Below, piece by piece: positions 3,290 to 26,340 of a stretch of DNA of 40,052 nt. A program made the translations under genes and the position numbers. The notes beneath the pieces were generated by a model, which was not told the DNA's origin, searched no databases, and saw nothing but the letters and a program-made list of their open reading frames with translations. Position 1 is the first letter of the stretch. Every line of letters starts with the position of its first letter. The stretch lies in the IMG/VR virus record IMGVR_UViG_646206259_000001; one strand, written 5' to 3'. Origin of the DNA: a virus. Its lineage: Duplodnaviria; Heunggongvirae; Uroviricota; Caudoviricetes.

Positions 3290-6200
3290 TCAACTGATAC
3301 TGATACCGGCTGTAGATTTCTTCATCACAACAACAAGAAGGTCGCTGATACTGGTCGTTGGCGTCCAGTTATTAGCACCATATGAAGAAACATTGAAAGT
3401 CAGGGTGACATGGCCGTGTCCGGCAGGCATATCAATGACTGATGAAAATACCCTGCTGACATCCGTCGCGGGTTGCTGAAAGATTTCCTGTCCGTTCTTC
3501 AGTACCTGCAGCTTACAGGTTGAATACCAGTATGACTGTTGGTTGTTGCTGTTGAAGTTTTCATGCTTACCCCCACGAAACAGAACGGGGGGGACTACTA
3601 TCTGACGGTCAAAAGCCTGGTCATCGTACACAGTGACCGTTATTGTACCGCTGGCATAACTGCCATTTCTCGGAAAGGCTTTTCCCACCGTTTTGACAAT
3701 ATCACCTTCAATCTGGTTAGCTGACAGTTTTCCCAGAATCCGACAGTTCTGATTAATCGTGACGTTGTTGAGCGTCCCGGAGTTCGCGTTCACGTTACCG
3801 CTGATATCCGCATTTTTCGCAGAAAGTCGACCATCAGGTGTCAGTGAAAACGTTGGGGGATTGCCACCGCTGGTAATGGTGGGAGCCGTCAGATATTTCA
3901 GGAACACTTCGTTCATGAATATCTGATCGCCCTGCCCAACAAACATCGGCTTTGTGTTGCCATTCGCAGGATTAATCATCGCAATCCTGTCCGCCGCCAG
4001 CAGCACCTGACTCTGCATACCGTCAGGAGTATTCTCAACACCGGCACCAATACCCGCGATATAAAGGCGTCCGTCCTGCATCTGCTGCAGCTTCACAGCC
4101 CACATGCTGTTCAGGTTATTATTTGTATCAACCTGAACCTTCTGTATCTGCTGGATCGCTGCACTCTGGTCTTCCAGTTTCTTATTGACGGTCTGCGTGA
4201 TTTCATTGCTGACACCCGTAATGGACGTCCTGATTTCAGCCAGGTCAGGCGCAAGCTGACCGTTATCAATCTGCGTCCACAACTCCTGAGCCAGATGGGT
4301 TTTCCCTATCTCTCCTTTGAAAAAATCCAGATAGCCGGATGCATCATCACTCGGCTGGCCAACAGCCTCCACAAATGCCGATTTGCCAACGGTGTTCACA
4401 CTGCGGATGTAAAAATAATAATCATGGCCCGGTTTGATATTGATACTGGCGGCTATCCAGTACAGCGCCGTGCCAAGATAGCGTGCTGTGGTTTCAACCT
4501 GCCTGATATCCGCAATCCGCTTTTCCGAGAACCAGAACTCAAACTGTACCGTCGGATCATAAACCGCAAGATGCGGCGTGGCGGTTATCTGAAAATACCC
4601 CGGTGTCAGCTCAATCTGCGACGGCGCTGCCGGTGCGGCAATCCGGAACGATACCGATNNNNNNNNNNNNNNNNNNNNNNNNNNNNNNNNNNNNNNNNNN
4701 NNNNNNNNNNNNNNNNNNNNNNNNNNNNNNNNNNNNNNNNNNNNNNNNNNNNNNNNNNNNNNNNNNNNNNNNNNNNNNNNNNNNNNNNNNNNNNNNNNNN
4801 NNNNNNNNNNNNNNNNNNNNNNNNNNNNNNNNNNNNNNNNNNNNNNNNNNNNNNNNNNNNNNNNNNNNNNNNNNNNNNNNNNNNNNNNNNNNNNNNNNNN
4901 NNNNNNNNNNNNNNNNNNNNNNNNNNNNNNNNNNNNNNNNNNNNNNNNNNNNNNNNNNNNNNNNNNNNNNNNNNNNNNNNNNNNNNNNNNNNNNNNNNNN
5001 NNNNNNNNNNNNNNNNNNNNNNNNNNNNNNNNNNNNNNNNNNNNNNNNNNNNNNNNNNNNNNNNNNNNNNNNNNNNNNNNNNNNNNNNNNNNNNNNNNNN
5101 NNNNNNNNNNNNNNNNNNNNNNNNNNNNNNNNNNNNNNNNNNNNNNNNNNNNNNNNNNNNNNNNNNNNNNNNNNNNNNNNNNNNNNNNNNNNNNNNNNNN
5201 NNNNNNNNNNNNNNNNNNNNNNNNNNNNNNNNNNNNNNNNNNNNNNNNNNNNNNNNNNNNNNNNNNNNNNNNNNNNNNNNNNNNNNNNNNNNNNNNNNNN
5301 NNNNNNNNNNNNNNNNNNNNNNNNNNNNNNNNNNNNNNNNNNNNNNNNNNNNNNNNNNNNNNNNNNNNNNNNNNNNNNNNNNNNNNNNNNNNNNNNNNNN
5401 NNNNNNNNNNNNNNNNNNNNNNNNNNNNNNNNNNNNNNNNNNNNNNNNNNNNNNNNNNNNNNNNNNNNNNNNNNNNNNNNNNNNNNNNNNNNNNNNNNNN
5501 NNNNNNNNNNNNNNNNNNNNNNNNNNNNNNNNNNNNNNNNNNNNNNNNNNNNNNNNNNNNNNNNNNNNNNNNNNNNNNNNNNNNNNNNNNNNNNNNNNNN
5601 NNNNNNNNNNNNNNNNNNNNNNNNNNNNNNNNNNNNNNNNNNNNNNNNNNNNNNNNNNNNNNNNNNNNNNNNNNNNNNNNNNNNNNNNNNNNNNNNNNNN
5701 NNNNNNNNNNNNNNNNNNNNNNNNNNNNNNNNNNNNNNNNNNNNNNNNNNNNNNNNNNNNNNNNNNNNNNNNNNNNNNNNNNNNNNNNNNNNNNNNNNNN
5801 NNNNNNNNNNNNNNNNNNNNNNNNNNNNNNNNNNNNNNNNNNNNNNNNNNNNNNNNNNNNNNNNNNNNNNNNNNNNNNNNNNNNACTGGTCTGTGGTGCT
5901 GTCCGGCGTCATCCTGCGCATCCGGATATTAAACGGGCGCGGCGGCAGGTTATCCACCACCACCGAGGCCAGATACTGCGAGGTGGTTTTGCCTTTAATG
6001 GTGATGTCTTTTTCCGTCACCCAGCCACCGTTACGCTGTATCTGAACCAGCAGGCGGACTTCCGACGGATTCCGGTCCCCCTTTGAGGTGGTTTCCACCA
6101 GTGCCTGCACACCGAAGGTAAAGCGCAGACGGTCGATGTTTGCAGACGTGATGGTCCGGGTAATCGGCGTGTCGTACTTCACTTCCGTACCCAGCACCGT

Positions 6201-22020: not shown

Positions 22021-22597
22021 CTATCTGCACTGCTCATTAATATACTTCTGGGTTCCTTCCAGTTGTTTTTGCATAGTGATCAGCCTCTNNNNNNNNNNNN
22101 NNNNNNNNNNNNNNNNNNNNNNNNNNNNNNNNNNNNNNNNNNNNNNNNNNNNNNNNNNNNNNNNNNNNNNNNNNNNNNNNNNNNNNNNNNNNNNNNNNNN
22201 NNNNNNNNNNNNNNNNNNNNNNNNNNNNNNNNNNNNNNNNNNNNNNNNNNNNNNNNNNNNNNNNNNNNNNNNNNNNNNNNNNNNNNNNNNNNNNNNNNNN
22301 NNNNNNNNNNNNNNNNNNNNNNNNNNNNNNNNNNNNNNNNNNNNNNNNNNNNNNNNNNNNNNNNNNNNNNNNNNNNNNNNNNNNNNNNNNNNNNNNNNNN
22401 NNNNNNNNNNNNNNNNNNNNNNNNNNNNNNNNNNNTATGTCAGTAATTACCGCGTTCGCCAGCGTCAGTTCTCTGGCATTTTTGTCGCGCTGGGCTTTGT
22501 AGGTAATGGCGTTATCACGGTAATGATTAACAGCCCATGACAGGCAGACGATGATGCAGATAACCAGAGCGGAGATAATCGCGGTTACTCTGTTCAT
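22021..22597 (-). CDS. Rz: Spanin Rz (i-spanin), interrupted by N-run 22089-22435; Rz1 presumably inside the N-run
   Basis: N-terminus [38 protein letters not shown]... and C-terminus ...[21 protein letters not shown] match lambda Rz, but the two parts are in different frames. Confidence 0.8.
22089..22435. other. N-run inside Rz
   Basis: 347 consecutive n. Confidence 1.
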
Positions 22598-23091
22598 TGC
22601 TGACCCCACAAACAGATTTCACGCTCAATCTCACGACGAGTCATGAGACCTTTCCATTGCTTACCGCCAGCATATGTCCAGCGACGTAGCTGATCACATG
22701 CGCCTTTGATATCGCCCTGGTTTATTTTGCGAAGAAGCGTCGATGTTCTGAAATTGCCAGCACCCACGTTGTAAACGAATGAGTAAAGAGCGCCGCGCAT
22801 TGTTTCCGGTATATCGACTTTGATGTACGGGTTAATTTGTCTGGCGACCGTGGCAAGGTCTTTATTCAGGAGGGCTTTGCATTCTGCTTTGGTATACGTT
22901 TTACCGAGCATGATGTCTTTTCCTGTATGCCCGTGACATACAGTCCATACACCAACAATATCTTTGTATGGTATGTAGCTGACACCTTCCAGACCATCGT
23001 TACCACTTGGGCCAGTGATTAACACTGATGCTATAGCAATTGCTCCGCCACCAATAGCAGCAGCAACGGCTTTTCGTAATGATGGAGGCAT
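22594..23091 (-). CDS. R: SAR endolysin R (phage 21 type, T4-lysozyme-like)
   Basis: N-terminal Gly/Ala-rich signal-arrest-release segment ([18 protein letters not shown]) and E-8-D-5-T catalytic spacing ([17 protein letters not shown]); matches P21 R from memory. Confidence 0.85.
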
Positions 23092-23306
23092 TATTCACCT
23101 CTCGCAGCCTTGCGCTTATCTTCTTTAATCTTGAAATAAAGGTTTGTCAGGTACGTCAGCAGGCCAAATACCAGGCTACCCAGCACACCTATTGCCGCCC
23201 ACTGTGAGGGCGTGACTTTATCGAGCAACTGTAAAAACCAGTACCCGGCACTACCTGCTGAGGTACCATAGGCGACACCCGTTGTTAACTTATCCATGGA
23301 TTTCAT
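23091..23306 (-). CDS. S: Pinholin S (phage 21 S21 type) with dual-start motif
   Basis: 71 aa, [26 protein letters not shown]...; Met1/Met4 dual start, two TMDs, charged C-terminus. Confidence 0.85.
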
Positions 23307-23444
23307 AACCCCACCTCGCAGACAAAGCGGGTGTAAATTAAGGGGATACTACGTATCGCAATAAAGGCAGAAACGTAACAGATTCGGAGTCAGTGAATAA
23401 CTCAGGTATTGGGTTATCAGCTAATATCGAGACTCAAAAAATGG

Positions 23445-23468
23445 AAAAACCCGCTCGACGGCGGGTTT
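23445..23468 (-). terminator. Rho-independent terminator candidate on the minus strand, ~140 nt upstream of S
   Basis: Stem AAACCCGC/GCGGGTTT with 6-nt loop; on the minus strand followed by TTTTTCCATTTTTTG. Confidence 0.45.
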
Positions 23469-23894
23469 AAGCTGTGTGACGAAGTAACCACTCTTAACAG
23501 CATAACCAATTTTTTACGTACGTAAACTACTAAATGATATTTGTGAGAATGCCACCGAGTGTTCAAAACACCACCACAAATGCATAAGAAAACTTCAACA
23601 AATAACCAGTTAATAATTTCCGATGTTATTTTTAGTTTGTTTAAATTAAGCTAAAGAATTATAGAGCACTTATAAATAAGTGCCATTAATATAAATTAGC
23701 TAATAGATTTATTTTTGTTCAGACAAGAGCCATGAATAGGATTAGATAGAAAAGGTTCAGATAAAAATAGAGATCTACTTCACAAATTAAATGAGAAACT
23801 AAAACTTACATCTTGAAATAATCACATTGATTAGATGAATATTTATCGCGCAGTGACATCATTTTTTAATAATAGTTCAAAAAAAGGGCGTACA

Positions 23895-24977
23895 ATGAAA
23901 AAATTAACAGTGGCAATTTCTGCTGTAGCTGCATCAGTACTGATGGCGATGTCTGCTCAGGCAGCTGAAATTTATAATAAAGACAGTAACAAGCTGGATC
24001 TATACGGGAAAGTTAATGCCAAGCACTACTTCTCCTCTAATGATGCAGATGATGGTGATACTACTTATGCCCGTCTTGGCTTCAAAGGTGAAACCCAAAT
24101 CAACGATCAACTGACTGGTTTCGGTCAGTGGGAATATGAATTCAAAGGCAACCGTGCTGAATCTCAAGGTTCTTCCAAAGACAAAACCCGTCTTGCATTT
24201 GCAGGCCTGAAATTTGGTGATTACGGCTCAATCGATTACGGCCGTAACTACGGTGTAGCATACGACATCGGTGCGTGGACTGACGTTCTGCCAGAATTCG
24301 GTGGTGATACCTGGACCCAAACAGATGTGTTCATGACTGGTCGCACTACTGGTGTTGCAACTTATCGTAACAACGACTTCTTTGGTCTGGTCGATGGCCT
24401 GAACTTTGCTGCTCAGTATCAGGGTAAAAATGACCGCACTGACGTAACTGAAGCCAATGGTGATGGTTTCGGTTTCTCCACTACTTATGAGTATGAAGGA
24501 TTCGGCGTGGGTGCAACCTATGCTAAATCAGATCGCACTGACGGTCAGGTCGCCTATGGTAAGAGCAAATTCAATGCCTCCGGCAAAAATGCGGAAGTAT
24601 GGGCTGCAGGCCTGAAATATGATGCGAACAATATCTATCTGGCTACCACATATTCTGAAACTCAGAATATGACCGTTTTTGGTAATAACCATATTGCAAA
24701 CAAAGCACAAAACTTTGAAGCAGTAGCACAATATCAGTTTGACTTCGGTCTGCGTCCATCTGTTGCTTACCTTCAGTCAAAAGGTAAAGACCTTGGTGTT
24801 CATGGTGACCGAGACTTAGTCAAGTATGTCGATGTCGGTGCTACTTACTACTTTAATAAAAACATGTCCACTTTTGTTGATTACAAAATCAACTTAATTG
24901 ACGATAGTAAGTTTACCAAAACAGCTGGTATTGATACCGACGACATCGTCGCTGTAGGTCTGGTTTATCAGTTCTAA
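23895..24977 (+). CDS. Outer membrane general porin, OmpC/OmpF/NmpC/Lc family (lysogenic conversion)
   Basis: Signal peptide [23 protein letters not shown], porin beta-strand pattern, C-terminal ...VAVGLVYQF; antisense in the Q-S interval as nmpC in DLP12 and lc in PA-2. Confidence 0.85.
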
Positions 24978-24984
24978 TCTGACT

Positions 24985-25024
24985 TACGAAAAAGATATGT
25001 TGCGGGAGGCTTTGCCTCCGCAAC
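24985..25024 (-). terminator. Hairpin with downstream U-run on the minus strand; candidate tR'-like element
   Basis: Stem GTTGCGGGAGGC/GCCTCCGCAAC (one bulge); minus strand continues ATATCTTTTTCG; ~150 nt downstream of Q. Confidence 0.3.
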
Positions 25025-25105
25025 ATATAAGTGGAGCCCTCAAGCCACTTCCTTTAGAAGCACTACCTTGCTTCTTACTATATAAACCTTCTGTTATATA
25101 TTACC

Positions 25106-25140
25106 CTTTATTTTGGGGGCGTTTCCACGCCCCATTTTTA
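25106..25140 (+). terminator. Rho-independent terminator for the porin transcript
   Basis: GGGGCGT-TTCC-ACGCCCC stem-loop followed by ATTTTTAAT on the plus strand. Confidence 0.5.
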
Positions 25141-25165
25141 ATAACTTTTAGTAAACAATTGCATA

Positions 25166-25549
25166 TCAATTAGAATTATTAGCAACGATATCCATATCTA
25201 ACCGGATATCTAATGCCATTAACATCCCTTCAATTATGCCCTCAGCCTTCTGTAACCTTTTCCCGATATAACCATCCGAGCAGCAATGCTTACTTGCCAG
25301 TGACATGAATGTCATACCACATACATAATAATCTACTAATAAATCGTGTAAATCGCTGTTGTTCTTTTTCAGACGGGCCATGCACCCGCAAATGATCATC
25401 GCGTCATCGTCACAACATTGCGGGCGAGATTTTACTTTTGAAGGAATTAATCCCTTAAAACCGGCGGCAATGGACGACCAGGTCACATCTTCATGATTAT
25501 TAGCCGCCCACGCACCCCAACGCTCAAGAACCATCTGAATATCACGCAT
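25166..25549 (-). CDS. Late gene antiterminator Q (QuuD-like, 127 aa)
   Basis: Cys-rich 127-aa protein immediately upstream of the late region and downstream of rusA/ylcG; resembles DLP12 QuuD from memory. Confidence 0.6.
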
Positions 25550-25634
25550 CAACTTACTCCACAAAAATCAGACCAGAACGCCAATTACAAGCAAAAATCA
25601 ACAAAACAGTATTAGTTGATTGTTATCTCTGACT

Positions 25635-25775
25635 TCATACTCCTGTTCCTGTCAGGGTTTTGGCGTAATTCTTCAGTATTCGGTAATCGGTCAAAACAGA
25701 ACCGAGGAAACGATATAAGCGCAGACGCCCCCAGCGGTGGCGAAGAAGTTCTGCCATATTAAACTCAAACATCAT
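25635..25775 (-). CDS. ylcG: Small protein YlcG-like (46 aa)
   Basis: 46-codon ORF translated by hand ([23 protein letters not shown]...); start overlaps the rusA stop; absent from the ORF track (<60 aa); position matches ylcG in DLP12-type nin regions. Confidence 0.5.
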
Positions 25776-26134
25776 TCATTCCCCATTTCGGTGATGGTCA
25801 GTTCCAGCCTCCCACCTTTGGTAACAGGCATCTTCACAACGCGGTAATCAACGACCTGAGCATCATCCAGCCAGAAACCTGCTTTAGTGAGTGCGTCAAA
25901 AGCGGCTTTTTGCAGATTATCCAGGTCACGGCGACGGCGATCCGGCATGTGGCACTCAATGCGGATTTTCACAGGCATAGCCAGGCCGATATCCAGCATT
26001 GCGTTTTTAATGATTCGGGCGACGTTATCGCGGTATGCCTGCCCCTCTGCGCTGACGTGCGTGCGCCCGCGATTATGGCGGTAATAGCGATTATTGCTCG
26101 GAGGCCAGGGTAATGTGATGCTGTAGGTATTCAC
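25772..26134 (-). CDS. rusA: Holliday junction resolvase RusA
   Basis: [38 protein letters not shown]... 120 aa matches RusA. Confidence 0.9.
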
Positions 26135-26340
26135 GCCTTAATAACCCCCTCTTTCAGCCACATAACCTGTGTTCTCGCCATACCTTCCAGCGCGCATTCT
26201 TTTGCATATGCAGCATCGACTTGCTTGGCATGCCCTTTACCGGCAATCTTCTGTATGCGCTAAACCTAGATAGAATCCACTCTGTGCACATTGAAGCCCG
26301 CTCTATGCTTTCTTTCAGGTATTGAAGGGATTGAGATGGG

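Follow-up and report, generated by a model that had tools for sequence, protein, structure and literature searches.

A predicted late promoter between the prophage porin and holin genes of a DLP12-type lambdoid module

Previous work on prophage DLP12 (qsr') of E. coli K-12 has made its late-control and lysis region, with the gene order quuD-nmpC-essD-rrrD-rzpD, a standard example of a lambdoid phage that carries an outer-membrane porin gene. Prophage porins alter the composition of the outer membrane and the sensitivity of the cell to phages and colicins. The porin gene lc of prophage PA-2 was reportedly described by Blasband et al. in 1986 and by Castillo-Keller et al. in 2006 as lying in the Q-S interval and being expressed in lysogens. 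In K-12, loss of the segment from -199 to -1, counted from the nmpC start codon, abolishes an active sigma-70 promoter, the start of which was mapped by 5'RACE (PMC11677980). Moreover, according to two reports, the DLP12 porin transcript contains within it a 167-nt RNA, IpeX (PMC12197685), which lowers the levels of the host porins OmpC and OmpF (PMC12197685, PMC7177473).

A second group of relatives is formed by the Stx phages 933W, H-19B and those of strain Sakai, in which Q933, pR', StxS and tR' make up a cassette. In 933W, pR' and the end of Q overlap, and the 933W-type leader continues to a second terminator at +258, yielding StxS; in the Sakai phages the distance from pR' to tR' was mapped as 258 nt by dRNA-seq and Term-seq (PMC7547250). 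The Q proteins concerned fall into PF06530, the Q21/Q933W family in the naming of Yin et al. (10.1101/651190).

The window analysed herein is a stretch of 40,052 nucleotides from a virus of the Caudoviricetes (IMGVR_UViG_646206259_000001). Its Q-to-lysis locus is a lambdoid module of the long-known DLP12/PA-2 type, made up of Q, a porin gene in reverse orientation, a holin gene and a lysozyme gene. With the module already known, what we correct in an earlier reading of the same DNA, the first-pass annotation, is modest: that reading placed the late promoter beside Q, so that late transcription would have had to cross the porin gene in antisense for about 1.8 kb. Its gene and hairpin coordinates agreed with the open reading frames and folds obtained here to within a few bases, and the parallel it drew with nmpC of DLP12 proved exact. 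The gene order is the quuD-nmpC-essD-rrrD arrangement of DLP12, with all orientations the same; Q and the porin share 96% and 91% amino acid identity, respectively, with the K-12 copies, the DNA between Q and the porin gene is about 95% identical, and the late-promoter region (ACGTACGT, the transcribed block and the hairpin described below) is identical or nearly so. The two differ in that the K-12 porin gene is broken by IS5 whereas that of the window is intact, and in an indel of 19 nt that falls within the leader, shortly before S. The likeness to PA-2, which also combines a prophage porin between Q and S with a 3'UTR RNA, is drawn from the description of PA-2.

All 2474 bp of the module at 23091-25564 recur with 100% identity in phages ev017 and PhiR57_1 and in many E. 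coli chromosomes, and at least 80% of it is covered in 2395 of the 5426 complete E. coli genomes. Records of the identical DNA carry the annotations quuD, ompC, essD and rrrD, the first being the name used by RefSeq. Since ev017 and PhiR57_1, which match it exactly from Q to S, are plaque-forming, the window may derive from a functional phage and not from a remnant. The first late gene is S, which encodes an S21-type holin (23091-23306, minus strand; PF04971, E 2e-35; essD/holin in the identical records), and it is followed by an endolysin gene of the RrrD/R21 type (22594-23091, minus strand; PF00959, E 1e-45; annotated as rrrD or lysozyme R) and by Rz, part of which is masked by a run of N at 22089-22435.

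The Q gene occupies 25166-25549 on the minus strand, with its ATG at 25549 and its stop codon at 25166-25168, and encodes an antiterminator of the QuuD type with 127 residues that matches PF06530 over its full length (E 8e-54). The match to the Q21 structures 6p18 and 6jnx is distant (E 4e-8). Identity to the Q proteins of 933W and Lahn1 is 76-80%, and a comparison with these and with K-12 QuuD shows a common core up to ...RLEMD, after which the C-terminal tails diverge. At the DNA level, positions 25551-25217 are about 75% identical to Q of the 933W/Lahn1 type.

Between Q and S, and on the opposite strand to both, lies a complete gene for an OmpC-family porin of the NmpC/Lc/OmpD type, as the first-pass annotation had noted. 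The open reading frame is listed as 23835-24977, and the likely start is the ATG at 23895 (MKKLTVAIS...), which gives an intact protein of 360 residues including the signal peptide. It spans positions 1-337 of the 337 in PF00267 (E 2e-151), can be aligned over its whole length with crystal structures of OmpC (residues 24-360 against chain positions 1-343, E 6e-137), and scores 521 bits against the NCBIfam model 'porin OmpC', the cut-off of which is 484. Among 39 related loci, the amino acid identity of the porin is 91-100%. The AT-rich segment at 23696-23894 (plus strand) corresponds to the upstream region of nmpC in K-12 and is predicted to hold the porin promoter and regulatory sequences, the equivalent of PnmpC.

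Downstream of the porin gene, the 3'UTR at 24978-25144 (plus strand) shares about 95% identity with the nmpC-quuD intergenic DNA of K-12 and is the equivalent of the IpeX region of DLP12. The segment from 24978 to about 25139-25144 fits IpeX in its length of about 167 nt, in its position directly 3' of the porin stop codon and in ending at an intrinsic terminator, and 24978-25144 as a whole folds with -53.6 kcal/mol (z -6.5). That terminator (25116-25139, plus strand) was called by the terminator scan as GGGGCGTTTCCACGCCCC followed by ATTTTT; its stem at 25116-25133 has 7 bp (dG -13.8, z -3.2), and it ends 27 nt short of the Q stop codon. The earlier proposal that this hairpin terminates the porin transcript is thus borne out. 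In a scan of 22500-26200 with E values up to 1, the IpeX region had no Rfam match; the scan returned two chance-level hits far below the gathering scores, sau-19 at a hairpin at 24995-25028 and Trp_leader at the late terminator. We also asked if conservation of the Q-porin intergenic DNA exceeds that of the porin gene, as selection on IpeX might bring about, and dropped the idea, the in-frame identities being similar.

This long hairpin at 24995-25028 comes directly after the porin stop codon and is the first stem-loop in the 3'UTR; it can form on both strands and has a 14-bp stem with one bulge. Its dG is -21.9 kcal/mol on the minus strand (z -6.3) and -22.5 on the plus strand (z about -6 in either case), and none of 200 shuffles folded as well. 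The stem is preserved in allelic variants through changes near the bulge. On the minus strand only, the hairpin is followed by a run of five T (24989-24993), and it could for that reason end transcripts of the Q strand; the run is down to four T in the commonest alleles. The hairpin belongs to the porin 3'UTR, and at most it may end Q-strand transcripts. The first-pass annotation had placed it at 24985-25024 and likened it to tR', a role that is not supported by its surroundings: neither the promoter scan nor the homology search found a pR'-like sequence between Q and the hairpin, and the pR' homologue follows only after another 1.5 kb.

Within the window, homology to late promoters of the same Q family is confined to 23526-23476, a segment flanked by the porin gene and S. 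The reference was the pR' of 933W and the other Stx phages; in the record of 933W, a putative pR' (TTTACG-16-TATCAT) is annotated at the homologous position. In the window, the putative pR' (23499-23526, minus strand) consists of a -35 element TTTACG (23521-23526), a 16-nt spacer and a -10 element TATGCT (23499-23504). The hexamers agree with the consensus at 8 of 12 positions, which explains why a generic promoter scan misses it. Within it, the palindrome ACGTACGT (23516-23523) is followed by a run of six A (23510-23515) and is a candidate Q-binding element; its counterpart in 933W reads ACGATCGT. Positions 23529-23445 align with the Lahn1 DNA at and just past the end of Q (78.8% over 85 nt, E 1e-9) and with a segment of phiP27 (91.7%, E 1e-14), and the alignment keeps the TTTACG -35, the 16-nt spacer, a TAnnnT -10, the invariant TAAGAGTGGTTAC and the hairpin that follows. 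Neither the transcribed block nor the promoter element was found again near Q in the window.

Immediately after the promoter comes a conserved initial transcribed block, TAAGAGTGGTTACTTCGTCAC (23476-23496, minus strand), the first 13 bases of which, TAAGAGTGGTTAC, are exact in DLP12 of K-12, PhiR57_1, PhiR70_1, 933W, Lahn1, phiP27 and VIT_AJPSC. Counting 258 nt back from the U run of the 933W tR' places the 933W start at block position 5/6, so that the start in the window is predicted at A23492/G23491, with S beginning about 186 nt downstream. The late promoter thus most likely sits between the porin and holin genes and not beside Q, as judged from homology. The first-pass annotation had itself named a late promoter just upstream of S as the observation that would overturn its reading, and this is the position to which both the homology and the comparative context point.

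An intrinsic terminator is present between this promoter and the late genes. The terminator scan and the fold agree on a minus-strand, tR'-type element at 23437-23468, in which an 8-bp stem at 23447-23468 (about +25 to +46; dG -12, z -2.0) is followed by TTCCATTTTTT and a U-rich tail reaching to 23437. In 933W its homologue is the first hairpin downstream of pR'. In the window, the scan found no other terminator-like site between the hairpin and S. That the late operon has its terminator 140 nt upstream of S, as assigned earlier, is therefore upheld by scan call, fold and homology alike. The 933W homology stops after this hairpin; in the window S begins within 130 nt, whereas the leader of 933W runs on. 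Terminator-like patterns as such were not enriched in the region (3, against 2.3 expected from shuffles), so the weight given to the hairpins rests on their position and conservation rather than on their number. We infer that 23447-23468 is the promoter-proximal late terminator of this phage.

To compare related loci, the block was turned into a scan pattern with three N, corresponding to the three variable positions among the eight bases after TAAGAGTGGTTAC, and 120 viral loci were matched. A Q-family gene was detected upstream in about 100 of these, always on the same strand as the block; no Q was detected in the rest, in several of which the sequence upstream was too short, and a few of which had more than 1 kb of it. 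The distance from the end of Q to the block ranged from 42 to about 2480 nt, and cargo of many kinds was found in between. The porin type has 1673 nt with the antisense porin gene between, so the textbook adjacency of promoter and Q is absent here: the promoter lies 1.67 kb from the Q stop codon, as opposed to the overlap seen in 933W. Displacement of this sort in many related loci indicates that adjacency is not a strict feature of the family. In phiP27, Q is likewise split from the matching promoter, the cargo being a GIY-YIG nuclease gene on the Q strand. In Lambda_ev087 the matching element is 1.9 kb downstream of Q, with an antisense lipocalin gene and others between, and the initial transcribed region differs from that of the window; a Q-strand terminator stands just ahead of the antisense cargo gene. 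Over 79 loci, the spacer palindrome co-varied with the subtype of Q, occurring as ACGTACGT, ACGATCGT, ACAATCGT, TGTTATAACA, GCGGTCCGC, GGAATTCC and TTCGTTACGAA.

Taken with the promoter-Q linkage across these loci, the arrangement is best explained, and with good confidence, by a porin cassette (promoter, porin gene, IpeX-type 3'UTR and terminator) inserted between Q and the late promoter that belongs to Q. In a lysogen, the porin and its 3'UTR RNA would be made rightwards from their own promoter, with transcription stopping at 25116-25139. The predicted pR' at 23526-23499 would start near 23492 on the minus strand, presumably firing constitutively, as the mapped pR' of the Sakai Stx phages suggests, and its transcripts would for the most part end after about 25 to 55 nt, where they reach the hairpin and its U run (23468-23437). 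Upon induction, Q would bind at this promoter, probably at the ACGTACGT spacer palindrome, and load onto RNA polymerase, which could then pass the terminator at 23468-23437 into S, R, Rz and the structural genes. Because pR' would lie downstream of the porin gene, late transcription would not cross it. The hairpin at 24995-25028 may also stop Q-strand transcripts that leave Q without being antiterminated, in which case the Q-strand and porin transcripts would end convergently with an overlap of about 150 nt. If the late promoter does lie between the porin gene and S, then expression of the porin and IpeX is physically insulated from that of the lysis genes instead of being coupled to it by antisense transcription, and the silence of the holin and endolysin genes in lysogens depends on one barrier, the terminator 140 nt before S. 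The point is relevant to the DLP12 lysis genes, whose reported expression at a low level influences the formation of biofilm and vesicles in K-12.

The porin gene could still be crossed by transcripts of another origin. It is conceivable, if somewhat doubtful, that besides a late start at about 23492 putative antiterminated early-right transcripts run through Q and continue across the porin gene in antisense; the two hairpins, 24995-25028 and 23447-23468, would then act only on polymerases that are not antiterminated, and the porin antisense RNA would not be the late transcript. Read-through beyond Q by N-antiterminated polymerase is established biology in lambda. It counts for this possibility, as do the orientation of Q and of its upstream neighbours (rusA, a ylcG-like gene and the nin region), all of which are on the minus strand and directed into the porin gene, and the Q-strand terminator ahead of antisense cargo in Lambda_ev087. 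Such transcripts would complement the insertion of a porin cassette upstream of pR' and would not replace it.

The hairpin at 23447-23468 might alternatively serve mainly as an RNA element for Q loading or pausing, or as a stabiliser of the leader, with the silence of S in lysogens resulting from low promoter activity. In the Sakai Stx phages with a 933W-type leader, pR' transcripts extend to +258 (PMC7547250), so the homologous first hairpin is at least partly passed without Q. Moreover, a common DLP12-type allele (16 loci) has a mismatch in the stem (GCTGG), and the lysis genes of DLP12 in K-12 are expressed at a low level (PMC7918800). However, at least 53 of the 60 distinct leader variants keep a hairpin with T-rich sequence after the block, and the window has no other terminator-like site before S. 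Divergent variants use different stem sequences, and retention of hairpin and U run despite such differences marks an intrinsic terminator rather than an element recognised by its sequence. We thus regard a role other than termination as unlikely.

A pR' directly downstream of Q, with 24995-25028 as tR', about 1.7 kb of antisense read-through and 23447-23468 overridden as well, appears very improbable: it would follow the usual lambda layout, with a very stable hairpin and five T on the Q strand 140-175 nt past Q and a weak sigma-70-like TGGAAA-18-TAATAT readable by eye at 25127-25098, but the late promoter, leader block and subtype palindrome are all at 23526-23476 with none beside Q, the T run is only T4 in the commonest alleles, and related phages separate Q from the conserved promoter by varied cargo. 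The TGGAAA-18-TAATAT sequence itself was rejected as a promoter, having no homology, no call in the promoter scan and, in most alleles as in K-12, a spacer of 19 nt.

With the insertion of a porin cassette between Q and pR' as the preferred reading, a tentative generalisation, rather less likely than not, is that the Q-pR' junction of Q21/Q933W phages is a general slot for mostly antisense morons, candidate defence genes among them, which would be expressed in the lysogen and shielded from the late transcript. Q might find its displaced promoter through the subtype-specific spacer palindrome (ACGTACGT here), and the overlap of about 150 nt between the Q and porin-IpeX transcripts could allow mutual regulation. 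The palindrome of each Q subtype and the position of the cargo slot would aid the annotation of late promoters and cargo in many prophages of the same Q family.

A minor feature concerns the DNA between the porin start codon and pR'. The essD operon of K-12 is cited in PMC7918800 as being under Q-type and RpoE control. A reporter fragment of that study ('-121 to +650') begins at position 5754 of the comparison sequence L001, which puts the RpoE-dependent +1 at L001 5875, or about 23846 in the window. The fragment covers both the pR' homologue and a motif GAACTA-16-TCACT, so it cannot discriminate between the two. This motif, which we infer to be recognised by sigmaE, lies within the porin 5' leader at 23852-23878 on the minus strand, directed toward S, and is the same in K-12 and in the window.

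Read on the minus strand, window positions 22.0-26.2 kb are a lambdoid late-control and lysis module. It comprises RusA (25772-26134, minus strand), a ylcG-like ORF (25635-25775, minus), Q (25166-25549, minus), a porin gene on the plus strand (ORF listed as 23835-24977, likely start 23895), the S21-type holin gene S (23091-23306, minus), a lysozyme (22594-23091, minus) and Rz. Rz is partly obscured by a run of 347 Ns at 22089-22435, which hides the greater part of Rz/Rz1 and leaves the spanin genes beyond assessment. The porin gene is intact: PF00267 is matched along the entire model, the score exceeds the NCBIfam 'porin OmpC' cut-off, and OmpC crystal structures align from residue 24 through the final residue. 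Gene calls, family matches and folds bore out the genes and hairpins described in the first-pass annotation. Phages ev017 and PhiR57_1, as well as many E. coli chromosomes, match the 2474 bases between S and Q with 100% identity; of 5426 complete E. coli genomes, 2395 have at least 80% of this stretch, and records identical to the module name its genes quuD, ompC, essD and rrrD. The cryptic prophage DLP12 of E. coli K-12 has the same layout, differing by an IS5 within nmpC, and the parallel drawn earlier with nmpC is one of identity rather than analogy. The module is of the DLP12/PA-2 type, a known arrangement that is very widespread and annotated as a matter of routine.

The late promoter had been assumed to adjoin Q, as in lambda. 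The homologue of the late promoter of this Q family lies instead at 23526-23499 (minus), between the porin gene and S. Q is a member of the Q21/Q933W family (Pfam PF06530) and is 76-80% identical to Q of phages 933W and Lahn1 (an Stx1 phage) as far as an RLEMD motif, beyond which the C-terminal tails diverge; DNA similarity to 933W ends ~50 nt short of the Q stop codon. When the DNA upstream of S was used as the query, window 23529-23445 matched the end of the Lahn1 Q gene together with the next 68 nt, and also a segment of phage phiP27. A promoter-region homologue before S was unexpected; judged by its alignment, it is the 933W late promoter region. The aligned features are, in order, a -35 TTTACG, a 16-nt spacer, a TAnnnT -10 (TATCAT in 933W versus TATGCT in the window) and an invariant TAAGAGTGGTTAC, after which comes a GC-rich hairpin followed by a U run. 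For the Sakai Stx phages, which are related, dRNA-seq and Term-seq mapped the 3' end of the late terminator tR' 258 nt from the late transcription start (PMC7547250). In 933W, stepping back 258 nt from the second terminator's U run leads to position 5/6 of the conserved initial transcribed sequence (the block; window 23476-23496, minus), the window equivalent of which, A23492/G23491, is the predicted late start. No second copy of the block or promoter element was found in the whole window, including near Q. The porin cassette appears to be placed between Q and the late promoter, pR', and not between pR' and S as the earlier functional reading had it; of that reading, the terminator before S stands, while the Q-side hairpin as tR' does not. 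Throughout, we infer function in this phage from homology.

An exact-pattern scan of a viral contig collection for the block returned 120 loci (loci compared here carry L-numbers). A Q-family gene, 39-100% identical to the window Q and sharing the strand of the block in every case, was found upstream in ~100 of the 120; in the remainder no Q was detected, several being short of upstream DNA and a few having >1 kb of it. The gap between the end of Q and the block was 42-93 nt (933W type), ~630-870, 1120-1200, 1450-1710 or 2280-2480 nt. Loci of the porin type have a gap of 1673 nt that contains the antisense porin gene, with S 173-190 nt past the block. Within the promoter spacer there is a short palindrome, with A5 or T4 after it (window 23510-23523, minus; loci L003 and L005-L128), and the palindrome differs by Q subtype or subfamily: ACGTACGT occurs with QuuD-type Q, ACGATCGT with Q933, ACAATCGT with an 84% type, TGTTATAACA with a 60% type, GCGGTCCGC with several types near 50%, GGAATTCC with phiP27-type Q and TTCGTTACGAA with the most distant type, while GCGTACGC is among the variants that change with Q subfamily. 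At L099, a recombinant Q has a QuuD-like C-terminal half, and its promoter, 933W-like in other respects, has ACGTACGT. Phage ev087 is without the block; TTTACAATCGTAAAAA-N-TATGAT, the element matching its Q subtype, nevertheless lies beyond an antisense lipocalin gene, 1.9 kb downstream of Q. Such co-variation is the pattern expected of a Q-binding element, making the palindrome a candidate for that of the Q21/Q933W family, and links the 23526-23499 promoter with the Q gene (25166-25549). In the 933W record, a different element, downstream of the start site, bears the annotation 'putative qut', and a literature search found no paper defining a Q-binding element for Q933.

Related phages carry 0.6-2.5 kb of varied cargo from the Q stop to the late promoter, mostly antisense to Q (L012, L014, L016, L024, L046, L048, L051, L059, L099; L004 3394-5270; L007 1145-2500). 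Examples are the PADLOC candidate defence protein PDC-S42 (E 9e-28), an NA37-family protein, an esterase, a lipoprotein, a lipocalin and, on the Q strand, the phiP27 GIY-YIG nuclease. The Q/pR' junction has the look of a hotspot for cargo, and separation of pR' from Q by mostly antisense cargo is common in the Q21/Q933W family. Within the family, Q proteins have a common core up to RLEMD, followed by unrelated short tails (25166-25190 in the window; L003, L004, L007): IVANNSN, ADCLR, GALHHG, or a 24-residue 933W tail overlapping pR'. Moreover, ~16 nt of a 933W-like Q 3' end persist by the displaced promoter (23529-23514). Variable tails and remnant together suggest an ancestral Q gene into whose 3' end the cargo was inserted. 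Displacement by cargo and a subtype-specific palindrome go somewhat beyond the textbook, and come from the comparison rather than the window locus.

Terminator scan and folding confirmed the three hairpins claimed. Terminator-like patterns in the region numbered 3 versus 2.3 in shuffles, that is, no excess, so that position and conservation carry the terminator argument. The minus-strand stem before S (23447-23468, followed by TTCCATTTTTT) is the sole terminator-like site ahead of S in the scan; in the late transcript as predicted, it spans ~+25 to +55. Its proposed role as a late terminator held up: of 60 distinct leader variants, at least 53 have a hairpin and then T-rich sequence after the block, and in the rest a hairpin is mostly visible by eye. 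Divergent leaders use other stem sequences (CCTCGC/GCGGGG, CCCTGCC/GGCGGGG), which indicates that terminator function is conserved. In the Sakai Stx phages, whose leader is of the 933W type, transcripts run past the homologous hairpin and end at +258 (PMC7547250), so this hairpin is not fully efficient there. A frequent DLP12-type allele (L009, L019, L025, L039 and ~12 further loci) has GCTGG for GCGGG in the 3' arm, a mismatch at the equivalent of window 23451; the lysis genes of those prophages may be less tightly silenced. Leakage past the single barrier at 23447-23468 would fit the low-level expression of DLP12 lysis genes reported in K-12 (PMC7918800).

Of the three, stem 24995-25028 far exceeds the others in stability (-21.9 kcal/mol, z -6.3, 0 of 200 shuffles as good). 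It can form on both strands, with a T5 run after it on the minus strand only, a run that is just T4 in the commonest alleles. With no late promoter upstream of it, this hairpin cannot be the tR' that had been proposed. The 188-nt spacer between the porin and Q stops is ~95% identical to the K-12 nmpC-quuD spacer. IpeX, as described in PMC12197685 and PMC7177473, is a 167-nt DLP12 RNA that is transcribed together with the porin gene from its promoter and reduces OmpC/OmpF. In both length and position it is matched by the segment between 24978 and the plus-strand terminator (25116-25139; stem 25116-25133, then ATTTTT), which folds far more stably than shuffles (z -6.5). Stem 24995-25028, retained despite allelic changes around its bulge, is the first stem-loop of this porin 3'UTR/IpeX region. 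It may also stop ordinary transcripts exiting Q; in ev087, too, a strong terminator on the Q strand stands right ahead of the antisense cargo gene. If so, Q-strand and porin transcripts would have convergent ends overlapping by ~150 nt (24989-25139), and the 3' end of Q mRNA would be wholly complementary to the IpeX region.

A sigmaE-like motif, GAACTA-16-TCACT (23852-23878, minus), lies within the porin 5' leader and points to S, divergent from and antisense to the porin promoter region, with a predicted start at ~23846. PMC7918800 describes a DLP12 reporter fragment, '-121 to +650', with an RpoE-dependent +1. This fragment starts at 5754 of L001 (the K-12 DLP12 locus), placing the cited +1 at 5875, or ~window 23846, so that the motif coincides with the +1 implied by the fragment and primer positions. 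Since the fragment holds both elements, the published reporter data cannot separate the motif from the pR' homologue. Transcripts from the motif would also have to cross the terminator at 23447-23468.

At the 3' end of the late leader (23307-23335, minus), a hairpin, CACCCGCUUUGUCUGCGAGGUGGGG, pairs with the Shine-Dalgarno region just upstream of the S start, and the N-terminus of S, MKSM, offers two potential start codons. Dual-start control is known in lambdoid holins, and the arrangement at S resembles it.
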